Source: Pseudomonadota bacterium
GTDB taxonomy: Bacteria; Pseudomonadota; Gammaproteobacteria; Steroidobacterales; Woeseiaceae
Direction: 5' to 3'
Assembly: GCA_038531945.1 (NCBI GenBank)
Contig: JBCBBH010000001.1
Coordinates: forward strand, 147,456-211,455
Length of the DNA: 64,000 nt
Shown: piece by piece, positions 23,389 through 37,007 of the stretch
Layout of the letters: each line of letters starts with the position of its first letter
Numbering within the stretch: position 1 is the first letter of the stretch
Made by a program: the position numbers and the translations under genes
The notes under the pieces: model-generated
Databases searched by the model: none
What the model saw: the letters and a program-made list of their open reading frames with translations, nothing else
What the model was told of the DNA's origin: nothing

Positions 23389-23805
23389 ATGGCGCGTTCG
23401 AAAAGACAAGAGACGCAGGGAAACGGCATCGCCGCACGTATTCGAACAGCTCGCGAACGTGCGCAACTCGAGCCCACTGAACTTCGAGAAGCGCTAGCGG
23501 CACTCGGGCTCGATGTTTCGAAAACGGGATTGCACCGTCTGGAAACCCAAGACCCCAAGAACCCGAATTTGTCGTTGATCGAAGCGATTGCGAGCATCAC
23601 GAACGTCTCCCCAAGCTGGATTCTGTTTGGCGAAGGCGCAACCACTAAGCCAGACGAATTCGGACAAGCCATCCGAAGTCGCGTTGTCGATACGATCGAG
23701 TTACTCGTCGGTGCACTCGATCTCACCACGCGTCAAGAATCGACAATTAACAACTGGATGAAATCCGTTCGCGAGTCTAAACCCACCAAGCTCAGAAAAC
23801 CCTGA
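23389..23805 (+). CDS. XRE/Cro-type HTH transcriptional regulator
   Basis: HTH region IAARIRTARERAQLEPTELREALAALGLDVSKTGLHRLE. Confidence 0.6.
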   Translation: MARSKRQETQGNGIAARIRTARERAQLEPTELREALAALGLDVSKTGLHRLETQDPKNPNLSLIEAIASITNVSPSWILFGEGATTKPDEFGQAIRSRVVDTIELLVGALDLTTRQESTINNWMKSVRESKPTKLRKP

Positions 23806-23849: not shown

Positions 23850-23877
23850 TTGACAGCGTTTTAAAGCTGCGTATACT
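23850..23877 (+). promoter_or_regulatory. near-consensus sigma70 promoter (TTGACA, 16-nt spacer, TATACT)
   Basis: TTGACA at 23850-23855 and TATACT at 23872-23877. The predicted TSS at about 23884 sits 2-3 nt before an ATG. Confidence 0.6.
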
Positions 23878-24057: not shown

Positions 24058-24122
24058 CCTCCCAGAAATTTTTCCTGGAAGGCTCGACACACGGACCTTC
24101 CAGGGAAAACTCCAAGTAGAGA

Positions 24123-24157
24123 CCCCGGTCGGTTCGTTAGAACCACCGGGGTTTTTT
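24123..24157 (+). terminator. strong rho-independent terminator
   Basis: CCCCGGTCGGTTC-GTTA-GAACCACCGGGG hairpin followed by TTTTTT. A second 9-bp hairpin lies at 24072-24104. Confidence 0.7.
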
Positions 24158-24281
24158 ATTGCCTCCGGTTTTTGCTCTTTAACAATGTGGATTGTTCAGA
24201 CGTTGGGGGCGGAGTCTTTATGGGAAAGACTGCGATCTACAGACCCGTCGTGCGCTTATGCGCCCGCCCCAAGCGTTTTTG

Positions 24282-24358
24282 GCTAACGTAGCTCAATGTG
24301 GCAGAGCAGCTGTCTTGTAAACAGCCGGTTGTGAGTTCAACCCTCACCGTTAGCTCCA
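24282..24358 (+). tRNA. tRNA-Thr(TGT)
   Basis: Full cloverleaf folded by hand. Acceptor GCTAACG/CGTTAGC, D arm TAGCTC..GAGC, anticodon loop CTTGTAA, T loop TTCAACC, CCA encoded. Confidence 0.8.
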
Positions 24359-24363
24359 TTTAT

Positions 24364-24448
24364 GGAGAGGCAATCATTGGCGAGAATAGCCGGCTGTAAC
24401 CCGGTGGTCCTTATGGCCTTGTAGGTTCAATTCCTACCCTCTCCACCA
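24364..24448 (+). tRNA. tRNA-Tyr(GTA), long variable arm
   Basis: Acceptor GGAGAGG/CCTCTCC, anticodon loop CTGTAAC, long variable arm, T arm GTAGG-TTCAATT-CCTAC, CCA. The D arm is atypical. Confidence 0.65.
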
Positions 24449-24450
24449 AC

Positions 24451-24522
24451 GGATCGGTAGCTGAGACAGAATAGCGGCTGGCTGAAGACCAGCAGACGAT
24501 GGTGCGACTCCATCCCGATCCA
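24451..24522 (+). tRNA. non-canonical tRNA-like gene, anticodon GAA (Phe-like)
   Basis: Perfect 7-bp acceptor GGATCGG/CCGATCC. Anticodon stem-loop GCTGG-CTGAAGA-CCAGC. The D loop lacks G18G19 (AGACAGAA) and the T loop is TGCGACT, so T54-Psi55-C56 is absent. No encoded CCA. Confidence 0.45.
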
Positions 24523-24526
24523 CCGT

Positions 24527-24602
24527 TGCCGTGTAGCTCAACAGGTAGAGCAGCCGACTGTTACTCAGTTTGTTGATGGTTCAAATCCATCCATGGCAGC
24601 CA
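24527..24602 (+). tRNA. tRNA-Asn(GTT)-like
   Basis: Acceptor TGCCGTG/CATGGCA with disc G and CCA. Canonical D and T arms. Anticodon loop CTGTTAC with C37 and one C-A mismatch in the anticodon stem. Confidence 0.55.
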
Positions 24603-24606
24603 CCCC

Positions 24607-24682
24607 GGGGGATTAGCTCAACGGGTAGAGCACCTCGTTTGCAACGAAAAGGCTCTCGGTTCAAATCCGAGATCCTCCACCA
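24607..24682 (+). tRNA. tRNA-Ala(TGC)-like (G3:U70 present)
   Basis: Acceptor GGGGGAT/ATCCTCC with a G3-U70 wobble. Canonical D and T arms. Anticodon loop TTTGCAA, but the anticodon stem has two C-A mismatches at its base. Confidence 0.5.
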
Positions 24683-25152
24683 AATTTCGAGTCATCGGTA
24701 TTACCGAGGCTCTTGATAGCGGCCTGGCGCTGCTAACCGTCGGTAACGGCGGGAAAGGAACGCACCCATGGCGTTTCGCCGAGACTTGAGTTTCGGTCAC
24801 TCCAGGCAAGTTCGGCCTCCGGTTGTTCTCGGCACTGTCGGGAATAGCGGCCAAGCGATACGCGGAAGTAGCGTGACTGACGCACCGGCAATGTCGGGAA
24901 TGCGGGTCCGTGAAAGAACACGTGGTGGTGCAACCCGCGACACCAATATCGTCAACCGTGAGAGGTAACGAATAGTGCAGTTCAGTGCGAGCCTTGCAGG
25001 CAAGTGCGACTGTGCAGAAGGCGAGGGTTCTGGTGGTCAGCCAGCGTCCTTTTCATCGGTCAAGTAGCCGGCAGGTGAACGACATTCGGCGTGTTGTATT
25101 TCGTCGCCCAAAAGGTGGCGAAGCGACTGAGGCGCGCACGTCGCAGTGGGAT

Positions 25153-25223
25153 TGTGATTTAGCTCAATGGCAGAGCGATTGCCCAGCAAGCAATAGGTGC
25201 AGGTTCGACTCCTGTGTTCACGA
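25153..25223 (+). tRNA. non-canonical tRNA-like gene (anticodon loop CCAGCAA, C33, A34-G35-C36)
   Basis: Canonical D arm (TAGCTCAATGGCAGAGC) and T arm (GCAGG-TTCGACT-CCTGT). Perfect anticodon stem ATTGC/GCAAT. The loop carries C33 and A34. The acceptor has one mismatch. No CCA. Confidence 0.35.
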
Positions 25224-25579
25224 CTAACGTCAAACGCAAAGACGCGCCTCGGTACGCCGTCGAAAATGGCTTAAGGCCGGAGTCTACGGACAATCCGGCG
25301 GTTGGATCAGCCGCAAGTTGATCGGACCTTGGCAGCAAGCCGCACGGTCGGGAAGCCCCCGTTTGGAGCCCGCAAGGCTCACGGTACGCAAGCTGCTGAC
25401 TAGACGTGTACTACAAGTGCATCGCCGCACTTCAAAAAAGGCAGTCATGGTCTTCGACTGTCGAGTTGGCTTCGGCCAATCGGCAGTGGACAAGCACGCA
25501 ACGAGTGTCACGCACGGCATTCGGTACTCGTGCGAACGGAGGACTACAAAGCGCCTAGTCTCAGCGCTTTTCCTTTTCC

Positions 25580-25655
25580 GCCACGATAGCTCAATCGGAA
25601 GAGCATCGGATTGTCGATCCGAAAGATGTCGGTTCGAGTCCGATCCGTGGCGCCA
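25580..25655 (+). tRNA. tRNA-Asp(GTC)
   Basis: Cloverleaf folds cleanly. Anticodon loop TTGTCGA, T loop TTCGAGT, CCA. One A-C mismatch at 7-66. Confidence 0.8.
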
Positions 25656-25661
25656 TTCTTC

Positions 25662-25737
25662 GATCCTGTGGGCTAACGGTTAGGCCACCAGACTTTCAAT
25701 CTGGGGATTGCGAGTTCGAGTCTCGCCAGGATCACCA
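25662..25737 (+). tRNA. tRNA-Glu(TTC)
   Basis: Acceptor GATCCTG/CAGGATC, anticodon loop CTTTCAA, T arm GCGAG-TTCGAGT-CTCGC, CCA. Confidence 0.8.
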
Positions 25738-25739
25738 AA

Positions 25740-25866
25740 TGACCAGTAGCTCAGCGGGTAGAGCACACGCCTGATATGCGTGAGGTCGCACGTTCAACGC
25801 CAGGCAGGATGCCTCAGTGCCGCGTAGCACAGGACGTGCGAGAGCGGCCCGTCGCCTGGTCAACCA
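25740..25866 (+). tRNA. split/interrupted tRNA-Ile(GAT)-like gene (about 68-nt insertion replacing the T arm)
   Basis: The 5' half is canonical: acceptor TGACCAG, D arm, and anticodon arm CACGC-CTGATAT-GCGTG plus variable AGGTC. The matching 3' acceptor CTGGTCA-A-CCA is found only at 25856-25866. The intervening 25788-25855 forms three hairpins rather than a T arm. Confidence 0.35.
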
Positions 25867-25872
25867 AACACT

Positions 25873-25949
25873 CTGCGTGTAGCCAAACTGGATAAGGCCC
25901 CTGACTTCGAATCAGGAGATTGAGAGTTCGAGTCCCTCCGCGCAGGCCA
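25873..25949 (+). tRNA. tRNA-Arg(TCG)
   Basis: Acceptor CTGCGTG/CGCGCAG, anticodon loop CTTCGAA, T loop TTCGAGT, CCA. One mismatch in the T stem. Confidence 0.7.
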
Positions 25950-25955
25950 AACACT

Positions 25956-26033
25956 CTGGGAGTAGCTCAGCCTGGTCAGAGCACTTGCCTTGGAAGCAAG
26001 GGGTCGCTGGTTCAAGTCCAGCCTTCCAGACCA
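25956..26033 (+). tRNA. tRNA-Pro(TGG)
   Basis: Acceptor CTGGGAG/CTTCCAG, anticodon stem-loop CTTGC-CTTGGAA-GCAAG, T arm GCTGG-TTCAAGT-CCAGC, CCA. Confidence 0.8.
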
Positions 26034-26058
26034 ACGTTTCGAAACCGGAGCGCTACAA

Positions 26059-26146
26059 GGAGACTCGCATGGCTGGCGTGCTTATCGGTCTTGAAAACCG
26101 TGATGTCCTGACGGGCGTGGGGGTTCGATCCCCACAGTCTCCGCCA
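26059..26146 (+). tRNA. tRNA-Ser(TGA), long variable arm
   Basis: Acceptor GGAGACT/AGTCTCC, anticodon CGGT-CTTGAAA-ACCG, long variable arm, T loop TTCGATC, CCA. Position 8 is C and the D arm is atypical. Confidence 0.65.
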
Positions 26147-26152
26147 ATCGAT

Positions 26153-26230
26153 GGTGTATCTAGCTTAATCGGCAAAAGCTCCGGGCCGTGACCCCGGGAG
26201 ATATCGGTTCGAGTCCGATGATTCACCCCA
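26153..26230 (+). tRNA. tRNA-His(GTG) with G-1 and C73, anticodon loop CCGTGAC (C33)
   Basis: G-1 is present and the discriminator is C, the His identity set. Anticodon stem CCGGG/CCCGG. The loop has C at position 33 instead of the near-universal U. One T-T mismatch in the acceptor. Confidence 0.6.
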
Positions 26231-26236
26231 ATTCAT

Positions 26237-26328
26237 GGAGATGTGGCCGAGTGGCTTAAGGCACTCGTTTGCTAAACGAGAGAGGGCTCGAAAGTCCTTC
26301 CCAGGTTCGAATCCTGGCATCTCCGCCA
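26237..26328 (+). tRNA. tRNA-Ser(GCT), long variable arm
   Basis: Acceptor GGAGATG/CATCTCC, D arm TGGCCGAGTGGCTTAAGGCA, anticodon CTCGT-TTGCTAA-ACGAG, long variable arm, T loop TTCGAAT, CCA. Confidence 0.8.
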
Positions 26329-26337
26329 TTTGTCTAT

Positions 26338-26408
26338 TGAGAGGGAGGCGGTCTCAGACGAGAGTCATAACCTCGTTGTCGTCGGTTCGAATCCGACCCT
26401 CTCGACCA
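26338..26408 (+). tRNA. tRNA-like gene with CAT anticodon and truncated D arm (71 nt)
   Basis: Acceptor TGAGAGG/CCTCTCG with A and CCA. T arm GTCGG-TTCGAAT-CCGAC. Anticodon loop GTCATAA. Only about 14 nt are available for the D region. Confidence 0.4.
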
Positions 26409-26477
26409 TTACTTTCTAGCTCAGCCGGCATAACGTCGCTCTCGCAGAGAGGCAGTCGGCGAGAAAATCGAACAACT

Positions 26478-26555
26478 ACGGCTATAGCTCAGCGGAAAAA
26501 GAGCGCGACCGTGCGAAGGTCGAGGACGGAGGTTCAAATCCTTCTAGCCGTGCCA
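26478..26555 (+). tRNA. tRNA-Arg(GCG)
   Basis: Perfect acceptor ACGGCTA/TAGCCGT, D arm TAGCTC..GAGC, anticodon CGACC-GTGCGAA-GGTCG, T loop TTCAAAT, CCA. Confidence 0.65.
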
Positions 26556-26561
26556 AACCAT

Positions 26562-26636
26562 TCAGCGATCGTCTAACCGGTAGGACACCAGACTTTGACT
26601 CTGGAAGTAGAGGTTCGATTCCTCTTCGCTGAGCCA
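26562..26636 (+). tRNA. tRNA-Gln(TTG)
   Basis: Perfect acceptor TCAGCGA/TCGCTGA, anticodon CCAGA-CTTTGAC-TCTGG, T arm AGAGG-TTCGATT-CCTCT, CCA. Confidence 0.8.
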
Positions 26637-26641
26637 ACAAC

Positions 26642-26715
26642 AGGTCGCTCTTCTAACGGCAAGATAACGGATTCCAAACCCGTGAATCGGTGTTCGACTC
26701 ACCGGCGGCCTGCCA
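26642..26715 (+). tRNA. tRNA-Trp(CCA)
   Basis: Acceptor AGGTCGC/GCGGCCT, anticodon loop TTCCAAA, T arm CGGTG-TTCGACT-CACCG, CCA. Confidence 0.75.
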
Positions 26716-26721
26716 ACAACT

Positions 26722-26796
26722 GATGCTGTGGTCAAATGGCAAAGGCGCGAGGTTGCAACCCTCGAGATGACAGTTCAACTCTGTCCAGCATCTCCA
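26722..26796 (+). tRNA. tRNA-Cys(GCA)
   Basis: Perfect acceptor GATGCTG/CAGCATC, anticodon CGAGG-TTGCAAC-CCTCG, T arm GACAG-TTCAACT-CTGTC, CCA. Confidence 0.8.
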
Positions 26797-26885
26797 CGGC
26801 CAGACACAGCGAGTAGTTCAAACATCGGACGCTCCGTCGACGAATCGATTTATGAGATAGCGGCCAGAAAAGGCTTTCTTGAAGC

Positions 26886-29228
26886 TTACCGCACACCCAA
26901 TGGCGTGAACTCGTATCGCTCAGAAACTGCGCATCGCTGCAATGATCGCGTGACGACGACGCCGGACGATATGAAATTCACCGTGATGTCGCGATGGTCG
27001 ATTGCACCCTGAAACGATCCTTGTGCGGACTCAATGATCAGTACCTGCTTGGAATCATCGTAGTGCAATTGGGTGACTCGACGTTCACCGCGGCGCCACG
27101 CCTCAGTACGGTCATCGTCTTCGATCAGACGAAAGTGACCATTGGCTCCGGTGTACACGTCTATCACTAACTTCGACTTGTCGATAAAGGCAGTGGTGAG
27201 TGCGTACTCTCGTTTCGGAATGATGGCACCAGCACGGACGTAAAGCGGCATGGCGTTGTTCTCTTGGGTAAGTACTTGCTCGCCATCGAGAAGGTCGCCA
27301 CCACCGAGTGGATACCAGCCACCGTTTGGAAGCCAGACGCTGGTGTGGCTTTGATCGACAACCGGTGCAACAAGAATGCTGGGGCCGAACATAAACTGAA
27401 GATCGCGCTTCCAAGCAGATTCACTGTCAGGAAACTCGAGTAACATCGGCCTTGCGATAGGCAGGCCGGTGTCGGCAGCCTCATGCGCCACCGAATACAG
27501 ATAGGGCATCAACTCATAACGCAGTCGCCCATAGCGGTGTGCTGCAGCAACGCTCGATTCACTGCGATCAAGAGGCCAGCGCGACTGACCCATACCGTGC
27601 GGTTTCCAAATGGGTGCGAACGCACCAAGCGCCATCGCCCACCGTTGATATAGCGATTCGTCGGGACCGCTGCCTTGGTCCCAATCGAAAAAGCCGCCGG
27701 CATCATGCCCCCAAAACGGGAAGCCAGCGAGACCGGCCAATTGCATCGCACGGATCTGCGACGCCATATCGTCGTCGTTGGGTTTAATATCACCGCTCCA
27801 TAGCGTCGCATAGCGTTGGGCGCCCGCGGTCATGCCGCGCACCCATACGAAAGGTCGATTGATGATCGGTGACCGATCCCAACCCTCTGCCACGAGCGCT
27901 TTGGCGATCAAAAAAAACCAGTAGTTCCGCATCTCGGCTGAACTGCGCCCATTGGCAAGCACGATGTCTTTCGGTGCCGCGCCCTGCTCGTCGAACTCGT
28001 CGATCCAAAGCGCATCACCCGGGAAGTTGAGAGCGGGATTTAGTGATTTCTCGTAAAACACCTGCCAGAACCAGCGACGAAAGTCCGGGTTCGTCAAATC
28101 CGGCGCACTTTCCGGAAACTCGATATTGTCGATCGTCGGAAGATTAAACGACGAAGTCCAGCCGTCCGAGAAACGTGCGATGCAGCGGTTGAAGTCGATC
28201 GTTGAGACCAACCCATTGCCTTCCAGCCATGTTGCCCAGGCGACAGGATCTGGGTAGCGAGTTCGGTCCCATTCGATTTTCGACTCACAACGCTTGCCGC
28301 CCGCCGCGCGCCACCGGTTATCGTTGACCACGTGATCCAACGGCAGTCCCGCAATACGGTGCGATTGGATCTTGTCTTTCCACCACGCTTCATCGGAAGG
28401 CGTATCAGAGTTGTGATCGTGACCCTTGTCCGACAGCTGCAGGCCGAACATCGACTTCATTGGCAGGCGTGGACGGCCCGTCAATTGTGTATAGCGATCG
28501 ACTACTGCCTTCAACGAAGGTCCCGCGATGAACACATAGTCCATCTGTCCGGTAAACCCGTGGGTGTCAATCGCGATGCTGTAGTCCCCATCCGCATTCA
28601 ATGCAAATCGGTTAGGGAACGTACTGTTGAGAAAGACGCCGTAGCCGCGACTCGATAGATAAAAGGGAACGATTAGCGGTGCCTGCTCGACGGGTTCGCT
28701 GCCATAGTTGCGCTCTACGATGGAACCCGAAAGATCTAGCCGATCCGCGCGCGCGAAATAGCCGTGGCCCAGACCGGTGAAGCGCTCGCCGTCCACGGGC
28801 ACGAATCGAACACCGCGTTCGTCGCCTGCTCGGTACGAGCCCATTTTTTCTTGCAGAATCGGTGTGGTGCTTTGTGCGGTCTCGAATGAGACTGCTAGCG
28901 TTTCGCGATCGATCACCACTTTGAGTTCACTCGATTGCAGTACCACTGTATCGCTGTTAGTTGCGACATCAACACTGCTCGTCCAATCGTGTGACTCGAT
29001 CATCTCGTAATAGCTATCCGGCAGAAACGCCTCGCCGTCGTGGGCGGTTTGCAGACGTACCATTGCGTCGCCGAACCACAATATTCTGAGGGTGCGCGAA
29101 CCATCTGGCGACTCGACATAGAACGCACGAGAGTCGGTATGGAACTGGGACGCTGCACAGCCGCACAGGACTAAGACGGCAGTGGCGAGCAGGCTGAGTT
29201 TCACTTGTGTTTTTGTCGGCACGTTCAT
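26886..29228 (-). CDS. glycoside hydrolase family 31 (alpha-glucosidase/alpha-xylosidase-like) lipoprotein
   Basis: GH31-like core with a candidate nucleophile region (ALWIDEFDE). Start re-set to ATG 29228 (MNVPTKTQ...LVLCGCAAS lipobox). The track's 39-aa extension overlaps the neighbouring gene. Confidence 0.7.
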   Translation of the reverse strand: MNVPTKTQVKLSLLATAVLVLCGCAASQFHTDSRAFYVESPDGSRTLRILWFGDAMVRLQTAHDGEAFLPDSYYEMIESHDWTSSVDVATNSDTVVLQSSELKVVIDRETLAVSFETAQSTTPILQEKMGSYRAGDERGVRFVPVDGERFTGLGHGYFARADRLDLSGSIVERNYGSEPVEQAPLIVPFYLSSRGYGVFLNSTFPNRFALNADGDYSIAIDTHGFTGQMDYVFIAGPSLKAVVDRYTQLTGRPRLPMKSMFGLQLSDKGHDHNSDTPSDEAWWKDKIQSHRIAGLPLDHVVNDNRWRAAGGKRCESKIEWDRTRYPDPVAWATWLEGNGLVSTIDFNRCIARFSDGWTSSFNLPTIDNIEFPESAPDLTNPDFRRWFWQVFYEKSLNPALNFPGDALWIDEFDEQGAAPKDIVLANGRSSAEMRNYWFFLIAKALVAEGWDRSPIINRPFVWVRGMTAGAQRYATLWSGDIKPNDDDMASQIRAMQLAGLAGFPFWGHDAGGFFDWDQGSGPDESLYQRWAMALGAFAPIWKPHGMGQSRWPLDRSESSVAAAHRYGRLRYELMPYLYSVAHEAADTGLPIARPMLLEFPDSESAWKRDLQFMFGPSILVAPVVDQSHTSVWLPNGGWYPLGGGDLLDGEQVLTQENNAMPLYVRAGAIIPKREYALTTAFIDKSKLVIDVYTGANGHFRLIEDDDRTEAWRRGERRVTQLHYDDSKQVLIIESAQGSFQGAIDHRDITVNFISSGVVVTRSLQRCAVSERYEFTPLGVR

Positions 29229-29242
29229 ACTCAGGTGTTCGG

Positions 29243-29974
29243 CTAGTTCGAGAAACCCCAAAGACCAATGTTGTCGAATTGAACACGCTTCGGCAGTTGC
29301 AGCAGGAAAAGCACCGCAGCGGCAAGGTCTTCGGTTTGCAACCAACCCGGTGTCATCTCATCCGCAACTTTGGGCTTTGGCACTTGCACAAGACCTGGGC
29401 ACAAGCTGTGAACCTTGATGCCGAATTCGCGGACTTCTTCCTGCAAGGCGAGTCCGAAACCAAGAACGCCGAACTTCGCGGCGCAGTAAGGCGCTGCCTC
29501 GGCGTAACCATTCTTGGCCGCTTGCGACGCGATATTGATGATGAAGCCGCTCCGGTTCGCCTGCATGGTCGGCAGCACCGCCTGACTCATAAGGAACGTA
29601 CCTTTGGTACAGGTCTCAAGTACGAGATCCCAGTTGGCCTCGGGACAATCGATGACCTTATCGGTCACACCGAGTCCCGAATTGTTGATCAAGAAATCAA
29701 CGCCGCGGTATTGAGCGAGTGTCTCTTCGACGATCGCTTGAACCTGCGCTTTGACACGCACGTCGGCAGCGACTCCGATGCAGTTCGACTCAAACTCATC
29801 GTTGAGTTCCGCCGCAGTTTCGGTGAGCAGGTCTGCACGTCGCGATGTGATCACCACGTCGACACCGCTCGCCATCAGGCCCCGAGTAATCGCCAGGCCG
29901 ATACCCGAGGCACCACCCGTGACAATGGCCGTTTTCCCTCGCAAATCGCTTGAGGAAGCAGTCAGTTCATTCAT
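29243..29974 (-). CDS. SDR-family oxidoreductase
   Basis: KTAIVTGGASGIGLAI Rossmann motif. Start re-set to the internal ATG 29974. The track start 30094 would run into the tRNA-Lys gene. Confidence 0.75.
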   Translation of the reverse strand: MNELTASSSDLRGKTAIVTGGASGIGLAITRGLMASGVDVVITSRRADLLTETAAELNDEFESNCIGVAADVRVKAQVQAIVEETLAQYRGVDFLINNSGLGVTDKVIDCPEANWDLVLETCTKGTFLMSQAVLPTMQANRSGFIINIASQAAKNGYAEAAPYCAAKFGVLGFGLALQEEVREFGIKVHSLCPGLVQVPKPKVADEMTPGWLQTEDLAAAVLFLLQLPKRVQFDNIGLWGFSN

Positions 29975-30013
29975 GGCTCGGCAGTATAGATCAGGTCTGC
30001 TTGATGCATCATC

Positions 30014-30089
30014 GAATCGATAGCTCAATCGGCAGAGCACCCGGCTCTTACCCGGGAGGTTGTGAGGTCGGAACTCACTCGATTCACCA
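30014..30089 (+). tRNA. tRNA-Lys(CTT), T loop GTCGGAA (non-canonical T54)
   Basis: Perfect acceptor GAATCGA/TCGATTC with A and CCA. Anticodon CCCGG-CTCTTAC-CCGGG. T stem GTGAG/CTCAC, but the loop starts with G rather than T. Confidence 0.6.
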
Positions 30090-30095
30090 AACAAT

Positions 30096-30170
30096 AGCCC
30101 GATAGCTCAGCAGTAGAGCACCGCTCTCACAAAGCGGAGGTCGGTGGTGCAACCCCACCTCGGGCGACCA
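30096..30170 (+). tRNA. non-canonical tRNA-like gene, anticodon CAC (Val-like)
   Basis: Anticodon CCGCT-CTCACAA-AGCGG. The D loop AGCAGTA lacks GG and the T loop is TGCAACC, the same co-variation as in the Phe-like gene at 24451. A1-G72 mismatch. CCA encoded. Confidence 0.45.
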
Positions 30171-30307
30171 CTTTTGACGCAATTCCGTCATACCGAGGTC
30201 TGAATTGTCGCCAAGTTCTGCGGACCGGGTTCTTTGAATTCCCGACTGGCGCGCAACGCTAACCATCGCCGCGCGTGTACCGAACGAAACGGCATTCTCA
30301 CCGCCAC

Positions 30308-30384
30308 TGGAAATTAGCTCAGATGGGTAGAGCATACGACTCATAATCGTACGGTCGCAGGTTCAACTCCTGCATTTCCCACCA
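30308..30384 (+). tRNA. tRNA-Met or tRNA-Ile2 (CAT)
   Basis: Anticodon TACGA-CTCATAA-TCGTA. Canonical D and T arms. The 1-72 pair is a T-C mismatch. CCA. Confidence 0.7.
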
Positions 30385-30681
30385 CTGGCTTCCACAGCCA
30401 TCCTGGCGAAAAGAACGAGAGTTCTGCGGTTCGAATCCGCCCTTGCAGAGAGATTCTGCACCACCGCGACTGTGTCCAGCGAACGGCAATGCGAGCTTGC
30501 TCGCGTTGTCTGACGCAGCAACCGGTTCGCCGGTCGCCGTGCTGGTCCGTACGCCGAACCGATTCCCGAAACGACGCCGGACTGTGTGCGCTCGCACTCG
30601 CGTCGTGTGTCGAATCGCGTCTCGGTTCCGCCTACGCACCACCGGCTGCCCGCGCACGGGTTGTGGACACAGCCGCACCCA

Positions 30682-31269
30682 TCAAAAATCCGCGCCTGAC
30701 TTCAGCGTAAACACCACAGAAATCTCAAGTTGGTTGTTGCGCTTCTCGGGCGTTGCGAGAAGCGCGAATTGACCAAGTGCTTGAGAGCGAGCGATGTCCC
30801 GTTCAGAAAGCAGAGAGTCGTCGGCAAGAAAGACCTTCGGCGCCCATTGGTTTCCGTACTCTTCGGATACCAATGTGAAGTGAATATGGGCGGCCTCGCG
30901 GCCGAGATGGTCCGCAGCCGGACGGATGGTTTGGAACACAAACTCACCGCATTCGTCTGTGATCGCCCAACCTTGCAATCGCCACATCGTGAGCTCGCGA
31001 TCGTTTCGGCCCAGTTCGAAACCTTCAGCGTCGCGATGATAGGAATGCACGACGACGTTGGGTGCGACTTCGCCAACAGGCGTAAAGACTGTCCCGCGCA
31101 CTACAAGCGGCTCACCCGGCTCATCGGGCGAACCAATCCGCGACACCGATGACAATGGAACACTCTTTGCCGCAATCGCTTCGTGCCAAGCGCGAAGCCA
31201 GGCTGGATCAACGTCGCCGGCAACAGAAGCGCCGCTCCATAGCGCTGCGCAAAGAACCCAATATTTCAT
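30682..31269 (-). CDS. secreted intradiol ring-cleavage dioxygenase-like protein
   Basis: Signal peptide. AAHIHF iron-ligand-like motif. Size and pattern resemble small protocatechuate-dioxygenase-like lipoproteins. Confidence 0.4.
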   Translation of the reverse strand: MKYWVLCAALWSGASVAGDVDPAWLRAWHEAIAAKSVPLSSVSRIGSPDEPGEPLVVRGTVFTPVGEVAPNVVVHSYHRDAEGFELGRNDRELTMWRLQGWAITDECGEFVFQTIRPAADHLGREAAHIHFTLVSEEYGNQWAPKVFLADDSLLSERDIARSQALGQFALLATPEKRNNQLEISVVFTLKSGADF

Positions 31270-31357
31270 CCACGACCCTCAGTTGGACTTCACTTCCTGT
31301 TAGATAGTAGATCGGACTGAGAGGTTTAACTCACTGACCAACAAAGGAGGTGCTTTG

Positions 31358-32644
31358 ATGGCTCACTCATCGAGCCAGGCCAGTCGCGTAGCCGACTGGG
31401 TACGAAATCGCAACGAGCAAGCACTGGCTTTGGCGCGTCGCGAGAACAAACGCATGTTTCCGACTACAGAAACATACAACGATAACAACCAAGGAGAACG
31501 CAACATGTTTTACATGAAGTTCAACGTGCGCAAGCACGAGCGTGCACTCCTGTTCCGCGACGGCGATTTCGTCAAGTTCCTTGAGCCTGGCGTGCACCGT
31601 TTCGTGACGGTTTTGCACAAGTACACGGTCGAATCGTTCGACATCACGGTACCGCTATTCGCACACCGGCTGCAGGACTTCCTGGTGGAGTCCTACGCAG
31701 AGGATGTCGCTCGCTACTTCGACGTAGTGACGACCGATGCCAATGAGATCGCCATCGTCTACCACGACGAGCGTGTCACGCTGATCATGGCTCCAGCCAC
31801 GCGCCATCTCTTCACGAAGGGTGTGCGCAAGATTCGCGTCGAGCGCTTTGCGATCACCGGTGATGTCGACGTCGACGCCCGTTTGGCCAAGCGCCTGTTG
31901 ACGGGCGACGACCGAACGTTGCAGGCGATCGCTGAGAAGGCGATCTACGCGCGCATCGTGTCGGACGGCCACGTGGGCTTGCTCTACGTGGATGGTGAAT
32001 TGAAGCGCTCACTGGCACCGGGTTACCACGCGTTTTTCGCGGTGGAGCGCGATGTCGAGGTGAAGTGCTTCGATACGCGTGTGCAGACGCTGGAAGTCTC
32101 CGGCCAGGAAATCCTGACCAAGGACAAGGTGGCTGTGCGCATCAACCTGACTGCAACCTACCAGTACGCCGATGTGGAAGCGGCTGTGCGTGCTGCGAAG
32201 GACCCGCTGGATCACCTGTACAAGGAAGTGCAGTTCGGTTTGCGCGGTGCGGTCGGTACCCGAACGCTGGATGCTTTGCTTGAAGACAAGACGGTCATCG
32301 ACACGTCGGTGGCACGTCATCTCGATGAGCACTTCGAAGCAATGGGTATCACGGTGAAGTCCGTTGGCGTGAAGGACATCATCCTGCCGGGTGACATGAA
32401 GATGTTGCTGGGTCAGGTGGTGGAGGCCGAAAAGGCCGCGCAGGCCAACGTGATTCGCCGTCGCGAAGAGACCAACGCGACCCGTTCACTTCTGAACACC
32501 GCGAAGGTCATGGAGACGAACGCTGTGGCGTTGCGTCTCAAGGAGCTCGAGACGCTCGAGAAGATCACCGACAAGATCGGCAACATCTCGGTTTACGGCG
32601 GCCTCGATGCCGTGTTGAACGACCTGGTTCGCATGAAGCAGTGA
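31358..32644 (+). CDS. SPFH/Band-7 (stomatin/flotillin-like) domain protein
   Basis: Band-7 core (ILTKDKVAVRINLTATYQ...KDIILPGDMK...EAEKAAQANVIRRREETNA). ATG 31358 has an AGGAGG RBS. A second possible start, ATG 31505, also has an AGGAG RBS. Confidence 0.8.
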   Translation: MAHSSSQASRVADWVRNRNEQALALARRENKRMFPTTETYNDNNQGERNMFYMKFNVRKHERALLFRDGDFVKFLEPGVHRFVTVLHKYTVESFDITVPLFAHRLQDFLVESYAEDVARYFDVVTTDANEIAIVYHDERVTLIMAPATRHLFTKGVRKIRVERFAITGDVDVDARLAKRLLTGDDRTLQAIAEKAIYARIVSDGHVGLLYVDGELKRSLAPGYHAFFAVERDVEVKCFDTRVQTLEVSGQEILTKDKVAVRINLTATYQYADVEAAVRAAKDPLDHLYKEVQFGLRGAVGTRTLDALLEDKTVIDTSVARHLDEHFEAMGITVKSVGVKDIILPGDMKMLLGQVVEAEKAAQANVIRRREETNATRSLLNTAKVMETNAVALRLKELETLEKITDKIGNISVYGGLDAVLNDLVRMKQ

Positions 32645-32728
32645 GTTCGACCAACCGGCGAGAGGTCAGGTGCAAGGCCTGGCCTCTCGCCATCTATTCG
32701 CCTTCGGTGTACCGAAGGCAATCCCAAC

Positions 32729-32804
32729 GGTGAATGTAGCTTAATGGCAAAGCCCCAGGCCGTGACCCTGGAAGATGCCGGTTCGACCCCGGTGGTTCAC
32801 CCCA
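32729..32804 (+). tRNA. tRNA-His(GTG) with G-1/C73, anticodon loop CCGTGAC (C33), second copy
   Basis: G-1 plus discriminator C. Anticodon stem CCAGG/CCTGG with the same C33-containing loop as the His gene at 26153. One G-G mismatch at 7-66. Confidence 0.55.
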
Positions 32805-32810
32805 AACACT

Positions 32811-32888
32811 AGCCGTCTGAAGGGAATTGGCATACCTACCTGTCTTAGAAACAGGTGCTTCTCGGTTCGACTCCGAGGGCGGCTACCA
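32811..32888 (+). tRNA. Leu-anticodon (TAG) tRNA with short variable arm (class-I-like)
   Basis: Leu-type D loop (GGAATTGGCA) and A73. Perfect anticodon stem CCTGT/ACAGG with loop CTTAGAA. It has a 5-nt variable loop in place of the long arm that all bacterial tRNA-Leu normally carry. Confidence 0.55.
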
Positions 32889-32943
32889 ATTTTTCTGGGC
32901 AGAGCTGACTGGGCGTCTTCAGGGCGTGGTACCAATGGCGTGA

Positions 32944-34032
32944 ATGCCTACTCCTTGGGTTCACTCTCGTCTTTATTCGTGGCCGATACGCACGCACAAT
33001 CAGGTAGGGTGCATTGAGTCGAGCATCGGAATTAGCAGACGGCGAATAGTTGTGACCACACGAACTCGAAACGTTCTCCTGTTCGGCCTACTCGTTGTGG
33101 TCGGAATCGCAATGGTCAAGATACGAAATCCGAGCGTCGACCTCGCTGTTGATCGACAAGATATCGGCAGCACTGTATCCGCGGAGGAAATCCCAAAACC
33201 AGGGGCGATAACAACTCTGGCCGACGCGCCCGGCGATGCGTTCGCTGATGCCGCAGCTTCAGCGGTCGCTACCGTCCCTGACGAGACCTGCGTCCGAGCC
33301 AAGGACGTGGAGATGCTGCTCTTGAGTTCCAGTGAGCCGCAGCGAATTCAAAACCTGATGTCCTACGGAGAGTGGTTCAACGACTACGCCGGCGTCGATG
33401 AAGCAACACTCGAATCACTTGCTGATCAACTCGACACCAAGGCGATGATCGTCCTTGGGACTCAAGCCGAGTTTCGTGCCATCGGTAGGGACCCTGCACT
33501 GGCGGTCGAGAAACTCAACGGAAGTGCCGTGAGAGAGAATGTCCAAAACAATGCCTTTGACGCTTGGTTGCGAGACCGAGAACGTATCGATGCCCATCGA
33601 AAAGATGTCGAAGCAGCTCGCGACTGGTATTACCAAGCTGCACTCCTTGGCGATCTCGGCGCTCTCCCTTTTCTTGGTGACGTACAGCTGGCGTTAGAAG
33701 AAACACCCGTAAGTCTCGGTTGGATTAGCCAAGAGGACTTCGATCAACTCCCTCGGCAGGCGCAAAACCCTAATGAGGTGCGTGGCGCTTATGGTGTGGC
33801 GGCTACTCGAATCGCTCCGAACGCCGGTACTGGATACGCTGGTTTACTACAGGGAATCTACGAGATATCGCTTACGCATAAGCCGTTCGCGGACGCGTTA
33901 GCGGAACAGTACAAACGCGACCGCGCCGATCTCGGCCTGCCACCGCTTGAGGTTCCACCGGCTGAGATTTCTCTGGATGAGTTAAGAGACCTTGCGGCAC
34001 GGCTCTGTCCTGGCGAAGAAGATTTCCTCTGA
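32944..34032 (+). CDS. hypothetical membrane-anchored protein
   Basis: N-terminal TM segment (VLLFGLLVVVGIAMV) and an acidic/helical C-terminal domain. No recognisable family. The start is uncertain. Confidence 0.4.
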   Translation: MPTPWVHSRLYSWPIRTHNQVGCIESSIGISRRRIVVTTRTRNVLLFGLLVVVGIAMVKIRNPSVDLAVDRQDIGSTVSAEEIPKPGAITTLADAPGDAFADAAASAVATVPDETCVRAKDVEMLLLSSSEPQRIQNLMSYGEWFNDYAGVDEATLESLADQLDTKAMIVLGTQAEFRAIGRDPALAVEKLNGSAVRENVQNNAFDAWLRDRERIDAHRKDVEAARDWYYQAALLGDLGALPFLGDVQLALEETPVSLGWISQEDFDQLPRQAQNPNEVRGAYGVAATRIAPNAGTGYAGLLQGIYEISLTHKPFADALAEQYKRDRADLGLPPLEVPPAEISLDELRDLAARLCPGEEDFL

Positions 34033-34090
34033 CCAACAGTCTTGGTCAACACCATGATCGAGCTTGGCTCGACAAATGGCCTCAACCAAA

Positions 34091-34167
34091 GCGCAGCTGA
34101 CGGGAAAGGCATACCTGGATAGCTCAAACCTATTCGTTTCCCCGTTCGAATCGGGGGCTGCGCACCA
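34091..34167 (+). tRNA. Leu-anticodon (CAA) tRNA-like gene with short variable arm, 45 nt upstream of the HNH-RtcB operon
   Basis: Perfect acceptor GCGCAGC/GCTGCGC with A73 and CCA. T arm CCCCG-TTCGAAT-CGGGG. Anticodon GATAG-CTCAAAC-CTATT. The D region TGACGGGAAAGGCATACCT is paralogous to that of the TAG Leu-like gene. 5-nt variable loop. Confidence 0.5.
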
Positions 34168-34211
34168 ACTCCCTCTGAACAATCCACATTGTTGAAGTCG
34201 TGAGAAGAACG

Positions 34212-34799
34212 ATGATGGAACAAATTTTGAAACTCGATGTGGGCGGAAGACCGATTGGTTGGATCACCCAGGAACAAGGCGCGCTGCTGTATTGCAGAGA
34301 TCAAGTCGCGTGGGAAGCCGGCGACCAGACGATCGTGTTACGCGGTGGATTCTCGCGTGTGACGGGACACCGTTCGATGTTGACGATCAACAGTATCGTC
34401 GCGACCACGAGCATCGACCAGTCGGCAGACAACTGGGCCGGCGGAACGGCGCTGACGAACGCGGCACTGTTCCGACGGGATCAGTACCTGTGCTTGTACT
34501 GCGGTGGATCGTTCAGCCGATCCGCGTTGACGCGAGATCACATCGTTCCGGTTTCGCGCGGCGGTGAGGACTGCTGGGAAAACGTTGTGACCGCGTGTCG
34601 CGCCTGCAATCAGCGGAAGGCGGATTTTCTGCTAGCCGAGTGCGGCATGTCGTTGCTGGCAACACCGTACGTCCCTAACCGAGCCGAAGGATTGATTTTG
34701 AATAATCGGCGAATTCTTTGCGACCAGATGGCGTTTCTGCAAACGCGCGTCGGTCCGCAAAGTCGAGTCGCTAGGACGAACAAGAGAGAAGAACAATGA
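34212..34799 (+). CDS. HNH endonuclease
   Basis: CLYCGG...TRDHIVPVSRGGEDCWENVVTACRACNQRK is a classic HNH/HNN zinc-finger nuclease motif. Its stop overlaps the rtcB start (ATGA). The track start is GTG 34200 and the ATG is at 34212. Confidence 0.8.
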   Translation: MMEQILKLDVGGRPIGWITQEQGALLYCRDQVAWEAGDQTIVLRGGFSRVTGHRSMLTINSIVATTSIDQSADNWAGGTALTNAALFRRDQYLCLYCGGSFSRSALTRDHIVPVSRGGEDCWENVVTACRACNQRKADFLLAECGMSLLATPYVPNRAEGLILNNRRILCDQMAFLQTRVGPQSRVARTNKREEQ

Positions 34800-36028
34800 A
34801 CAACGTAACGGAAAACTACGACGTCCTGTTTGATGGGGGCGTACCTGTAAAGCTGTGGACGCGTGGCGTCCCAACAGACGAACGCGCACTGGATCAACTG
34901 CGTAAGGCAGCCTCGATGCCGTTTATCTACAAGCACATCGCAGTCATGCCGGATATGCACGTCGGTAAGGGCTCGACCATTGGTTCGGTGATCCCAACCA
35001 AGGGCGCAATCATTCCTGCCGCGGTCGGTGTGGATATCGGTTGCGGCATGATGGCCGTGCGCACGAGTCTTAACGCGTCTGACCTGCCCGACAACCTGTT
35101 CGCGATTCGTTCGGCAATTGAAGCGGCGGTGCCGCACGGTCGGTCGAGCGGTCGCGGGAAGCGGGATAAGGGCTCGTGGGGCGAAGCGCCCGAGGCATCG
35201 TTGGATGCCTGGGGTAGCGGTCTCGCCGCGCGGTTCTCGCAACTGGTAGAGAAGCACCCTCGCCTTGCGAAGACGAACAACTTGAACCACCTGGGAACGC
35301 TCGGAACAGGCAACCACTTCGTTGAAGTGTGCCTGGACGAAGCGCAATCGGTTTGGTTCATGTTGCACTCGGGTTCGCGCGGTGTCGGTAACGCGATCGG
35401 GATGCACTTCATTGCGCTGGCTCAGCGTGAGATGGAGCGCTTCTTCATCCACCTGCCGGATCGGGATCTCGCCTACCTTGCCGAAGGCACCGAACACTTC
35501 GACGACTACGTCGAAGCGGTCGGTTGGGCGCAGGACTTCGCGCTGGCAAATCGTCGCGTGATGATGCTGCACACGATCCGTGCGGTGCGCGATGCGCTTG
35601 CTCGCCACTTCGATGCGGAACTTGAGGCCGTGAACTGTCACCACAACTACGTGGAGCGGGAGCATCACTTCGGTGAGAACGTACTCGTGACGCGCAAGGG
35701 TGCGGTCAAGGCAACGAAGGGTACGATGGGCATTATCCCAGGCTCGATGGGCGCCAAGTCGTTCATTGTGCGCGGACTCGGAAACGAGGAGAGCTTCTGC
35801 TCTTGTTCGCACGGTGCCGGTCGCATCATGTCGCGGACGCAAGCGAAGAAGGCGGTGTCGTTGGCCGAGCACAAGGCGGCGGTGGCGCACGTCGAATGCC
35901 GGGTCGATGCCGATGTTGTGGATGAAACGCCATCCGCGTACAAGGACATCGATGCGGTGATGGCGGCCCAGGATGATCTCGTTGAGATCGTCCACACGCT
36001 ACGCCAGGTCGTTTGCGTGAAGGGCTAA
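34796..36028 (+). CDS. rtcB: RNA-splicing ligase RtcB (3'-phosphate/5'-OH RNA ligase)
   Basis: RtcB family motifs include ...HNYVEREHHFG... and ...CSCSHGAGRIMSR. About 410 aa. Confidence 0.9.
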   Translation: MNNVTENYDVLFDGGVPVKLWTRGVPTDERALDQLRKAASMPFIYKHIAVMPDMHVGKGSTIGSVIPTKGAIIPAAVGVDIGCGMMAVRTSLNASDLPDNLFAIRSAIEAAVPHGRSSGRGKRDKGSWGEAPEASLDAWGSGLAARFSQLVEKHPRLAKTNNLNHLGTLGTGNHFVEVCLDEAQSVWFMLHSGSRGVGNAIGMHFIALAQREMERFFIHLPDRDLAYLAEGTEHFDDYVEAVGWAQDFALANRRVMMLHTIRAVRDALARHFDAELEAVNCHHNYVEREHHFGENVLVTRKGAVKATKGTMGIIPGSMGAKSFIVRGLGNEESFCSCSHGAGRIMSRTQAKKAVSLAEHKAAVAHVECRVDADVVDETPSAYKDIDAVMAAQDDLVEIVHTLRQVVCVKG

Positions 36029-36033
36029 ACCGG

Positions 36034-36078
36034 GTGGCCATTTTCAATTCATTGGAGTTGAGGATGGCCACTTTTTTT
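36034..36078 (+). terminator. rho-independent terminator after rtcB
   Basis: GTGGCCAT...ATGGCCAC hairpin followed by TTTTTTT. Confidence 0.65.
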
Positions 36079-36089
36079 GAGCAAGCACC

Positions 36090-37007
36090 ATGGACACTAA
36101 AGAAGCAAAGGAGATCATTGACTGTCTTGGGCAAGACGCATTGCCGTTCTGGTATTTCCGAGATCGCTATGCGCTCCTGTTGATCAGTATGCTCGGCGAC
36201 TCAGTCTCCAAACAGGAGATTAAAGCGTCCCCGTATGCGCAACTCTTGGACAAAGCGGCCGTGCGTTCCGTTCTTGCACAGTTCCGTGGGCGCGCGGCTC
36301 CCAGTCATGCCTTCGAACTGGAGACGCGCGATGAGCCCGTTTCGTATCCGCTGACGCTGGCACTCTGGGGTGGACACAGCCACTGGTGGGTGCAAACCAC
36401 GCGGCGAGGTTACAGCTTAGTCCTGCAACTCAATTTTCCGATTGAACACAACCGGACCTACCGCAGGCTCATCGATCCCGAAGGTCGAATGCCATTTGTG
36501 TATACGGATCACCCCGTTCGAATCAAACGGTTCGTGACGATGGCTTGGTCTCGGATGGATGTGGACCTCAACACCGGCGAAGTCTTGATTGAAGAGATTC
36601 AATCCGACTGGATGCGCCATTGGCGACACTACCGAGAAGTTGCACGACAGCGTCGACACTGTGTGCCCGTGCGTGGCCTATGCGTTGCTGTCGACAACAT
36701 CATCCAGTATTGCGACACAGAACTCTCTAAACACCAGCACTGGCCGGAAACCATGCTAGCGGCAAGCATCTGGTTCATCCGTTGTCAGCTCGGCATTCGC
36801 CGGATTTTCTATCACACCCACGAATCGGGCGCGGCACTGAAGCGAACGGGTGATCGCAAGCCACCGCGCTCGCTTTACACGAAATTACCTGCGCGGTTTT
36901 GCTTCCGCGAAACGGAGACACGACCTGCCTTCATGCAGCGTGGTGTGCGGACGAACTGCTCGAAGAAGGCGGTGGCCGCTGCTCGGTTCCAGCTGCTCGA
37001 ACTGTAA
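36090..37007 (+). CDS. hypothetical protein (305 aa), downstream of rtcB
   Basis: Long ORF with coding-like composition and no recognisable motifs. The RBS is not obvious. Confidence 0.4.
   Translation: MDTKEAKEIIDCLGQDALPFWYFRDRYALLLISMLGDSVSKQEIKASPYAQLLDKAAVRSVLAQFRGRAAPSHAFELETRDEPVSYPLTLALWGGHSHWWVQTTRRGYSLVLQLNFPIEHNRTYRRLIDPEGRMPFVYTDHPVRIKRFVTMAWSRMDVDLNTGEVLIEEIQSDWMRHWRHYREVARQRRHCVPVRGLCVAVDNIIQYCDTELSKHQHWPETMLAASIWFIRCQLGIRRIFYHTHESGAALKRTGDRKPPRSLYTKLPARFCFRETETRPAFMQRGVRTNCSKKAVAAARFQLLEL

Follow-up and report, generated by a model that had tools for sequence, protein, structure and literature searches.

The window analyzed here, a stretch of 64,000 nt from a Pseudomonadota bacterium of the Woeseiaceae (GenBank assembly GCA_038531945.1, contig JBCBBH010000001.1, positions 147,456 to 211,455 of the forward strand), contains at positions 34091-36028 a tRNA gene followed by genes for an HNH endonuclease and an RtcB RNA ligase. 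Within a genome akin to both Woeseiaceae and Chromatiales, this segment is probably the 3’-terminal part of a long tRNA array operon that carries HNH and rtcB as accessory genes and would serve as a spare-tRNA and RNA-repair kit. The long-tRNA-array reading follows from the synteny of array and HNH gene in related loci, from the linkage of the two reported in the literature, and from the occurrence of two RtcB clades with intact motifs beside the HNH gene. An original prediction, made from the sequence of the window alone, had taken tRNA, nuclease and ligase for a dedicated tRNA cleavage and repair module that did not correspond to a described system. The latter claim has to be withdrawn. The locus is a long tRNA array (L-array) unit with HNH and RtcB partners, a kind already described, since the linkage of HNH genes to arrays, with rtcB in the neighborhood, has been published (PMC8421152, PMC10272220, PMC5966550, PMC12803027).

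The tRNA-array neighborhood that the prediction had recognized was borne out by the 23 forward-strand tRNAs called by ARAGORN (Table 1). With a span of 9886 bp and 2.3 tRNAs per kb, all on one strand, they form an L-array by the published definition, in which 20 tRNA genes and 2 genes per kb are the lower limits (PMC4758250). Three of the ARAGORN calls fall under the Rfam gathering threshold; tRNA-Ser(TGA) and tRNA-Trp(CCA) were called by ARAGORN and missed by Rfam at this threshold. The anticodons of Ala-AGC and Arg-GCG are atypical for bacteria, and the unusual tRNAs of the array are located at 25153-25224, 26059-26146, 26478-26555 and 26642-26715. According to Pfam annotation the array is interrupted by opposite-strand genes (26886-31269) and by the same-strand Band_7 gene and an open reading frame (ORF) of 362 codons, ORF362. 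At the 3’ end, both the ATGA overlap of the HNH stop and the rtcB start (34796-34799) and the clean terminator after rtcB were found as predicted. The proposal of one transcription unit stood in so far as a scan for sigma70 promoters and terminators predicted neither between ORF362, the last tRNA, HNH and rtcB, but the scale of this unit is 12 kb, and it is for this larger unit that we infer co-transcription.

Table 1. Features of the tRNA array locus, in order of their position in the window
Feature	Position	Strand	Evidence and remarks
ORF138, putative XRE-type helix-turn-helix regulator	23389..23805	+	Pfam HTH_31 E=1.3e-5; HTH_3 23.3 bits (cutoff 23)
Near-consensus sigma70 promoter TTGACA-16-TATACT	23850..23877	+	11/12 matches; GC-rich discriminator follows
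Leader ORF, 56 codons	23887..24057	+	begins 9 nt past the -10 element
GC-rich hairpin with U-run, intrinsic-terminator-like	24118..24160	+	between leader ORF and boxA
boxA, GCTCTTTAACAA, rrn-type Nus antitermination signal	24174..24185	+	sole exact match in the window
Leader (5’) strand of the complementarity around the array	24177..24200	+	pairs with 34174-34197 (23 Watson-Crick, one G.U)
tRNA array, 23 tRNA genes in four blocks	24282..34167	+	ARAGORN 23; Rfam 20 at gathering threshold
SPFH/Band_7 (slipin-like) gene inside the array	31355..32644	+	Pfam Band_7 101 bits
tRNA-Leu(CAA), last tRNA of the array	34091..34167	+	ARAGORN; 77 nt, short variable arm, CCA encoded
Trailer strand of the complementarity	34174..34197	+	contains the conserved 13-mer ACAATCCACATTG (34179-34191)
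HNH (beta-beta-alpha-Me) endonuclease, 195 aa	34212..34799	+	Pfam HNH_5 58 bits, HNH 53.8 bits, both above cutoff
RtcB 3’-phosphate/5’-OH RNA ligase, 410 aa	34796..36028	+	Pfam RtcB PF01139 424.7 bits
Intrinsic terminator closing the unit	36032..36080	+	19-pair hairpin and T-run at 36032-36073
ORF305, conserved accessory protein, GNAT-like fold	36090..37007	+	AlphaFold2/Foldseek

The anatomy of the locus, its synteny and its homologies were followed in two sets of HNH loci. The close set comprised 25 loci with HNH proteins at least 58% identical to that of the window, the genomic contexts of which were scanned by ARAGORN and tblastn; the distant set comprised 55 loci from Nevskiales and Burkholderiales (47-57% identity). 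In 22 of the close loci the HNH gene lies 3’ of same-strand tRNAs, up to 26 of them, and the other three contain less than 1.3 kb of sequence upstream of HNH. The tRNA preceding HNH is usually a tRNA-Leu of 76-80 nt, and its distance to the HNH start is most often 40-53 nt. In the window, the position of a tRNA 5’ of an HNH nuclease gene was confirmed; the HNH frame is open from 34200, and alignments of the homologues favor the ATG at 34212, which leaves a gap of 44 nt instead of the 45 nt claimed before. Most related arrays likewise hold a Band_7 gene inside them; in the close set, 19 of 25 loci have it 5’ of HNH, and it is present in L001, L004 and L007.

Linkage of HNH genes and arrays is well documented. 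Long arrays that spread horizontally were defined as L-arrays by Santamaria-Gomez et al., who noted an HNH gene conserved beside them; in cyanobacterial L-arrays rtcB and dpsA occur in the genomic neighborhood (PMC8421152). In Anabaena, the trn operon, all8564 (HNH) and rtcB are co-induced under translational stress (PMC8421152), and the regulon repressed by TrcR includes the trn operon, all8564, rtcB, a slipin (SPFH) operon and GNAT genes (PMC10272220). Morgado and Vicente identified HNH as the most widespread coding sequence of mycobacterial arrays, often accompanied by an XRE regulator (PMC5966550), and a paper of 2026 regards the arrays, in which an HNH gene is embedded and conserved, as a putative anti-defence system (PMC12803027). 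We compared such arrays with the window by tblastn and ARAGORN. The megaplasmid RPME01 of Methylibium petroleiphilum carries 27 tRNAs, the last of which, a tRNA-Leu, is followed after 70 nt by an HNH gene whose product shares 39% identity with the window HNH over the full length. On a Mycobacterium intracellulare plasmid the HNH gene is embedded among 28 tRNAs (approximately 32% identity over 70% of the query), and on Anabaena pCC7120delta it lies 200 nt upstream of the 24 ARAGORN tRNAs of the trn operon, with only the core of the protein aligned (49% identity over 70 aa).

RtcB joins 3’-phosphate or 2’,3’-cyclic phosphate ends to 5’-OH ends. The assignment of the gene downstream of HNH to this family, already made in the original prediction, was corroborated by the Pfam match, and alignment with Pyrococcus horikoshii RtcB (E=1e-34) revealed that the motifs GVDIGCG, GTGNHF, HSGSRG and HGAGR, which comprise the metal-binding and guanylylated-histidine motifs, are retained. 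Judged by these motifs, the window RtcB looks active. It scored under the NCBIfam equivalog cutoffs (PRK09588, 162.8 versus 407; release_rtcB, 135.6 versus 271.8), and lookup of its exact sequence returned no record. An assignment to the RtcA/RtcR-linked or the PrfH-linked type of RtcB was ruled out by the neighbors HNH and ORF305 and by the release_rtcB score.

In 12 of the 25 close loci an RtcB gene lies at most 250 nt 3’ of HNH. These RtcB proteins come from two clades that are 26% identical, and most of the 12 loci carry the clade other than that of the window; one such gene in L007 (6591-8000, 469 aa, Pfam RtcB) occupies the same site as the window gene. RtcB genes of the window type were furthermore detected elsewhere in two other arrays (L027 and L080). 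On the evidence of synteny, the conserved core of the locus is the array together with HNH, and RtcB is a frequent accessory that was acquired more than once. The repeated recruitment of RtcB genes from two clades to a site beside HNH speaks for a genuine connection in function between the array and RNA repair.

From the gene order in the window, the original prediction had inferred a self-contained module, in which HNH would cut RNA as an anticodon nuclease, RtcB would be the ligase dedicated to the repair, and the neighboring tRNA would be the substrate. The tight packing of tRNA, HNH and rtcB with the ATGA overlap would fit such a module, as would the repeated recruitment of RtcB beside HNH. 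The properties of the HNH protein point elsewhere. Its zinc-binding motif CxxC...CxxC and its catalytic motif D-H...N...N are complete, as in an HNH nuclease, and residues C94, C97, D109, H110, N124, C129, C132 and N133 are invariant in 55 sequences. The number of homologues amounted to 2451, and the best 120 of them, mostly from metagenome-assembled genomes of Pseudomonadota, are 62-99% identical over approximately 189 aa. The profile searches that had been proposed for this protein yielded core-level matches in the PDB: with a 55-member HNH profile, matches were confined to the HNH cores of solved structures, namely 4H9D (E=1.5e-14; deposited as ‘HNH endonuclease’), the HNH domains of IscB and Cas9, McrA and a group II intron maturase. 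We take 4H9D to be a DNA nickase; the HNH domains of IscB and Cas9 as well as McrA act on DNA. By homology, HNH would thus act on DNA, and its role may lie in maintenance or spread of the array or in something else.

Moreover, HNH nucleases of the beta-beta-alpha-Me type leave 3’-OH and 5’-phosphate ends, which are no substrate of RtcB. Approximately half of the array loci lack RtcB next to HNH, and some lineages have HNH without an array: no array was found in 53 of the 55 distant loci, and HNH stands alone in housekeeping contexts in Solimonas (between clpB and a DUF1631 gene) and in Limnohabitans (between ribF/ileS and purN). Around these two orthologues (L048, 10001-10525; L086, 10001-10561), neither a tRNA array nor RtcB occurs within 10 kb. 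The tRNA in front of HNH is not a dedicated substrate either; it is the last member of the array, and other loci have CAA, TAA, CAG or TAG at this position, or four Leu isoacceptors in tandem. For these four reasons, the DNA-acting relatives, the end chemistry, the distribution of RtcB and arrays and the varying tRNA, it is unlikely that HNH makes RtcB substrates.

Searches of NCBIfam, PADLOC and PHROGs with HNH gave generic core matches only (PtuB, Cas9d, IscB), except for phrog_16726, the match to which spans residues 3-163. The PtuB match of the core is weak (E=3e-6 in PADLOC), but it has a precedent behind it, as PtuAB of Retron-Eco7 is an HNH-containing effector that degrades tRNA (PMC11555353). 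Because of this precedent we keep the model of HNH as a tRNase at a low and not at zero probability, and the self-contained nuclease-ligase module as a whole appears highly improbable.

The 77-nt tRNA with anticodon CAA, short variable arm and encoded CCA, as originally described, was confirmed by the ARAGORN call and by covariation of related copies. Its acceptor stem is perfect over 7 bp, the anticodon stem has 6 bp and carries the loop CUCAAAC, the T arm has 5 bp and the loop TTCGAAT, and discriminator A precedes the CCA; the D stem is weak, the variable region has 5 nt, and the long arm of class II tRNA-Leu is missing. With the Rfam tRNA model RF00005, tRNA-Leu(CAA) was matched neither at the gathering threshold nor, in a search of the local region, at E<=10; the sister Leu(TAG) reaches 37.3 bits with this model. 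In an alignment of 32 distinct short Leu-tRNA copies from related loci, 99.3% of the cells were paired and compensatory changes occurred in 16 of 21 pairs. Double changes numbered 159, compared to 52.9+-6.7 in shuffled alignments (0 of 500 shuffles reached this value), and pairing in the slid controls was 37-51%. Given these covariation statistics, tRNA-Leu(CAA) is a genuine, conserved cloverleaf RNA under selection. Purifying and compensatory selection on these tRNAs is what is expected of working tRNAs, and this speaks further against the module of nuclease, ligase and substrate.

The short variable arm is a property of the Leu family in the arrays. Among the Leu-anticodon tRNAs of array-bearing loci, 68 of 75 are at most 81 nt long, and Ser and Tyr tRNAs keep their long arms. 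Short Leu tRNAs also occur in the arrays of Anabaena (75-78 nt) and Mycobacterium (77-78 nt). Examples of 75-80 nt are located in the window at 32811-32888 and 34091-34167, in L090 at 4326-4862, and in L009 at 7194-7271 and 9750-9826; a second short Leu type, with GUAGCCCAAUUGG near its 5’ end, is common to the arrays of Pseudomonadota, Anabaena and Mycobacterium. For leucylation in E. coli the long arm is dispensable, and A73, G18G19 and the tertiary contacts of D and T loop are required (PMC9976931). All members of the short Leu family have discriminator A, GG in the D loop and TTCGAAT as T loop. Since the elements required by leucyl-tRNA synthetase are retained, charging of these tRNAs with leucine is plausible. 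No discussion of short-arm Leu tRNAs was found in two papers on such arrays (PMC8421152, PMC5966550).

A second RNA-level feature ties the two ends of the array together. The 13-mer ACAATCCACATTG occurs in the window exactly twice, at 34179-34191 on the forward strand and at 24183-24195 on the reverse strand, the latter 90 nt before the first tRNA, and at least 13 related loci have such a pair of copies around their arrays. The complementarity is 20-24 nt long and reaches into non-palindromic flanks; it overlaps boxA at the 5’ copy, and the trailer strand ends 15 nt before the HNH start codon. Most loci have GTGTAGA in the leader and TCTACAC in the trailer, and the window and L011 have GTTCAGA and TCTGAAC. 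In 16 loci, which are related to each other and whose trailer copies were found through their complementarity to the leader copy, 92% of the cells were paired, with compensatory changes in 8 of 20 pairs. There were 26 double changes, compared to 6.0+-2.1 after shuffling (0 of 500), and slid controls showed 25-44% pairing. One-sided differences resulted in G.U in 10 cases and in A.C in one. Covariation and the G.U bias of the one-sided changes favor pairing of leader and trailer within one RNA rather than an action as DNA-level repeats. A simple palindromic operator as sole function of the 13-mer was ruled out by the covarying non-palindromic inverted flanks and the G.U bias. The putative duplex is reminiscent of the stalks at which RNase III processes rRNA operon transcripts. 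In the Methylibium array no leader/trailer complementarity was seen by eye.

These repeats bear on a different explanation of the locus, in which HNH is a selfish homing endonuclease that rides on or mobilizes the array in the manner of SegB in the T4 tRNA cluster, RtcB is unrelated, and the inverted 20-24-nt repeats are terminal repeats or HNH targets. This is the literature’s own interpretation of array-linked HNH genes (PMC8421152; PMC5966550), and it would agree with the resemblance of the HNH core to DNA-cleaving HNH domains, with signs of horizontal spread of L-arrays and their plasmid-borne relatives, and with the position of the inverted repeats, which flank precisely the unit that holds the tRNAs and leave HNH immediately outside. 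However, HNH proteins from many taxa retain 60-80% identity along their entire length, the gene holds a fixed position beside the arrays, and it has stand-alone orthologues in housekeeping contexts, all of which is atypical of homing endonucleases, which are expected to be sporadic in distribution, to diverge rapidly and to sit in or beside their own target. The G.U compatibility of the one-sided changes points to RNA pairing, the 5’ repeat copy overlaps boxA, which is an RNA signal, and the presence of two RtcB clades at one spot argues for selection, not chance. We therefore consider a homing endonuclease unlikely to explain the locus.

Upstream of the first tRNA, the array has an elaborate leader. 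Homologues of ORF138 (57-78% identical) end 348-416 nt 5’ of boxA in 13 related loci, and in the window it lies directly 5’ of the array promoter; it is a candidate array regulator. The promoter, TTGACA...TATACT or TATAGT, is kept in 16 of 17 loci examined. Although the leader ORF comes in eight different lengths (40-63 aa), its frame is preserved in 16 loci; its ATG lies 8-11 nt after the -10 element, and its C-terminus ...GEPMT* is conserved, the window copy ending in ...GERMT*. The terminator-like hairpin is preceded by an additional hairpin at 24074-24104; the RNA of region 24030-24200 folds with -65.7 kcal/mol (z=-3.99), and the hairpins are conserved in an alignment of 13 loci. Leader ORF and terminator may constitute a ribosome-sensing attenuator. 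When the leader was inspected for the three segments of a classical attenuator, alternative pairings were present near the leader stop codon, and no clear anti-terminator pairing with the terminator stem was detected. Together with the XRE-like gene, leader ORF and terminator suggest that the array is regulated.

The boxA of the window is the same as the boxA-spacer sequence of the E. coli rrn operons, ugcucuuuaacaa (PMC2724277). The boxA RNA GCUCUUUAACAA lies downstream of the promoter, which is the sequence arrangement of an rrn-type antitermination leader. It is conserved in 19 loci, including L008 (4156-4167), and an exact copy is present 62 nt 5’ of the first tRNA in the Methylibium plasmid array. 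This conservation implies Nus-factor antitermination of the array transcript, as far as sequence signals allow this to be predicted. Taken together, boxA and the leader/trailer complementarity indicate one long, presumably antiterminated primary transcript that extends into the HNH 5’ untranslated region. Among the papers searched, those on bacterial tRNA arrays were silent on boxA, and the one text with both terms describes a phage genome. Nus-type antitermination of long untranslated transcripts has been shown for CRISPR arrays (PMC7665894).

A consensus promoter with GC-rich discriminator, together with boxA, is characteristic of operons for stable RNAs, and the locus is conserved across Woeseiaceae-like genomes. 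Along with the uniform GC content of the window and the lack of mobility genes near the array, this could mean that the array is an ordinary housekeeping tRNA operon built like an rRNA operon, with HNH, RtcB and ORF305 being incidental. But this operon is gated by a leader ORF and a terminator, and its tRNAs include atypical ones (the short-arm Leu tRNAs, the three sub-threshold Rfam calls, Arg-GCG and Ala-AGC). The same tRNA types together with HNH are found on plasmid arrays that have been reported as supernumerary (PMC8421152, PMC12803027), and the accessory genes parallel the Anabaena stress regulon (PMC10272220). An ordinary housekeeping operon is accordingly a quite improbable interpretation.

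Several observations also weigh against a long array operon with HNH and rtcB as accessory genes. RtcB does not adjoin HNH in approximately half of the related array loci. The uniform GC content across the window and the failure to find integrase or phage genes near the array in its Pfam annotation do not point to horizontal acquisition. The N-terminal domain of HNH (approximately 85 aa) is conserved, and in an AlphaFold2 model built with 55 close homologues it reaches a predicted local distance difference test (pLDDT) score of 36-59 only, the core being the one confident part. HNH orthologues away from arrays imply that the function of HNH need not depend on the array. Finally, the opposite-strand insert of 4.4 kb, which encodes a GH31 glycosidase, a short-chain dehydrogenase (SDR) and a dioxygenase-like protein, renders a single transcript across the whole unit doubtful in this genome; as these genes split the window array, internal promoters may be needed. 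The opposite-strand genes are not present in compact relatives such as L004.

Downstream of the terminator, ORF305 had no profile match in Pfam, NCBIfam, PADLOC or PHROGs. Its AlphaFold2 model is confident (pLDDT 91.5), and the Foldseek matches are weak (E>=0.055), nearly all of them to GNAT acyltransferases; on this structural model, ORF305 is a distant GNAT-fold protein. Among the 25 close loci, 11 have this ORF 3’ of HNH or RtcB. Strict linkage of ORF305 to arrays was ruled out by a Desulfopila homologue without an array nearby, and exact-sequence lookup of an Acaryochloris homologue returned no record. RtcB, ORF305, ORF362 and Band_7 produced no defence-system matches in PADLOC, PHROGs or NCBIfam.

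For the array operon with HNH and rtcB at its 3’ end, we envisage that transcription most likely reads through from the array into HNH and rtcB, that translation of these two genes is coupled, and that transcription would end at the terminator after rtcB. The array would supply a spare tRNA pool, and RtcB, whose activity like that of the other enzymes is predicted from homology, would reseal the breaks that anticodon nucleases and toxins make in tRNAs or rRNA. By analogy with the stress-induced Anabaena system, the locus could be a translation-rescue or anti-defence kit.

A more specific version, which we put forward tentatively and hold to be possible though doubtful, is that the 12-kb unit is organized like an rRNA operon and works as a self-regulating emergency kit for translation, equipped with nuclease-escaping Leu tRNAs. 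Here, the near-leaderless ORF of 40-63 codons and the terminator would sense ribosome or tRNA failure, read-through past the leader terminator would load Nus factors at boxA, and the antiterminated polymerase would transcribe the tRNA array. Leader and trailer would then pair into an RNase III-type stalk, cleavage of which would free the tRNA precursor and at the same time make the 5’ end of the HNH-rtcB mRNA, hard-wiring expression of ligase and nuclease to array induction. As decoys or replacements that accept leucine, the short-arm Leu tRNAs would elude nucleases recognizing class II tRNA-Leu.

Long tRNA arrays are widespread and horizontally mobile, and they are currently discussed as stress-response or anti-defence devices. 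The locus described here unites a regulator, a leader ORF with terminator, boxA, tRNAs, SPFH, HNH, RtcB and a GNAT-like protein in a compact, conserved gammaproteobacterial unit. It makes testable how spare tRNAs are switched on, how their transcript is protected from termination, whether short-arm Leu tRNAs are charged and used, and whether the HNH substrate is DNA or RNA. The attractive reading of a nuclease plus its ligase is corrected as improbable, and the highest value for follow-up lies in the architecture of leader, boxA and stalk and in the short-arm Leu tRNAs shared across phyla.

Among known systems, RtcB RNA-repair operons are represented by E. coli rtcBA with RtcR and by Salmonella rsr-yrlBA-rtcBA with tRNA-like Y RNAs. 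They resemble the window in the position of RtcB beside tRNA-like RNA genes and in a role connected with stress or with the repair of cleaved tRNA and rRNA; however, RtcA, RtcR, Rsr and Y RNA are missing in the window, where HNH and ORF305 adjoin RtcB instead. With the homing endonucleases of phage tRNA clusters, for which the T4 SegB and T5 HNH enzymes are cited in PMC8421152, the locus shares a nuclease gene in or beside a tRNA cluster, but the window HNH is highly conserved, fixed in position and has stand-alone cellular orthologues. The leaders of rRNA operons and boxA-protected CRISPR arrays have in common with the window an exact rrn boxA before a long untranslated RNA array (PMC2724277; PMC7665894), and the complementary flanks around structural RNAs recall the RNase III stalks of 16S and 23S rRNA. 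They differ in that the cargo of the window consists of tRNAs and protein genes and that its leader adds a translated ORF and a terminator.

Closer parallels are the tRNA array units themselves. Those of Mycobacterium likewise have HNH in or beside the array, a frequent XRE regulator, Leu tRNAs of 77-78 nt and a proposed anti-defence role; in contrast to the window they are actinobacterial and plasmid- or phage-borne, with no RtcB reported and RF-1/PrfH-like genes in some groups (PMC5966550, PMC12803027). The trn operon of Anabaena sp. PCC 7120 shares with the window the long same-strand array, the same-strand HNH gene beside it, the functionally linked rtcB and SPFH/slipin genes, the short Leu tRNAs of 75-78 nt, and GNAT genes in the TrcR regulon as counterparts of the GNAT-like ORF305. 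In Anabaena, HNH lies upstream of the array, and rtcB and the slipin gene are unlinked, chromosomal and under a ribbon-helix-helix (RHH) repressor, whereas in the window SPFH is embedded in the array, HNH and rtcB are joined to its 3’ end, and the unit is headed by an XRE-like candidate regulator, leader ORF, terminator and boxA.

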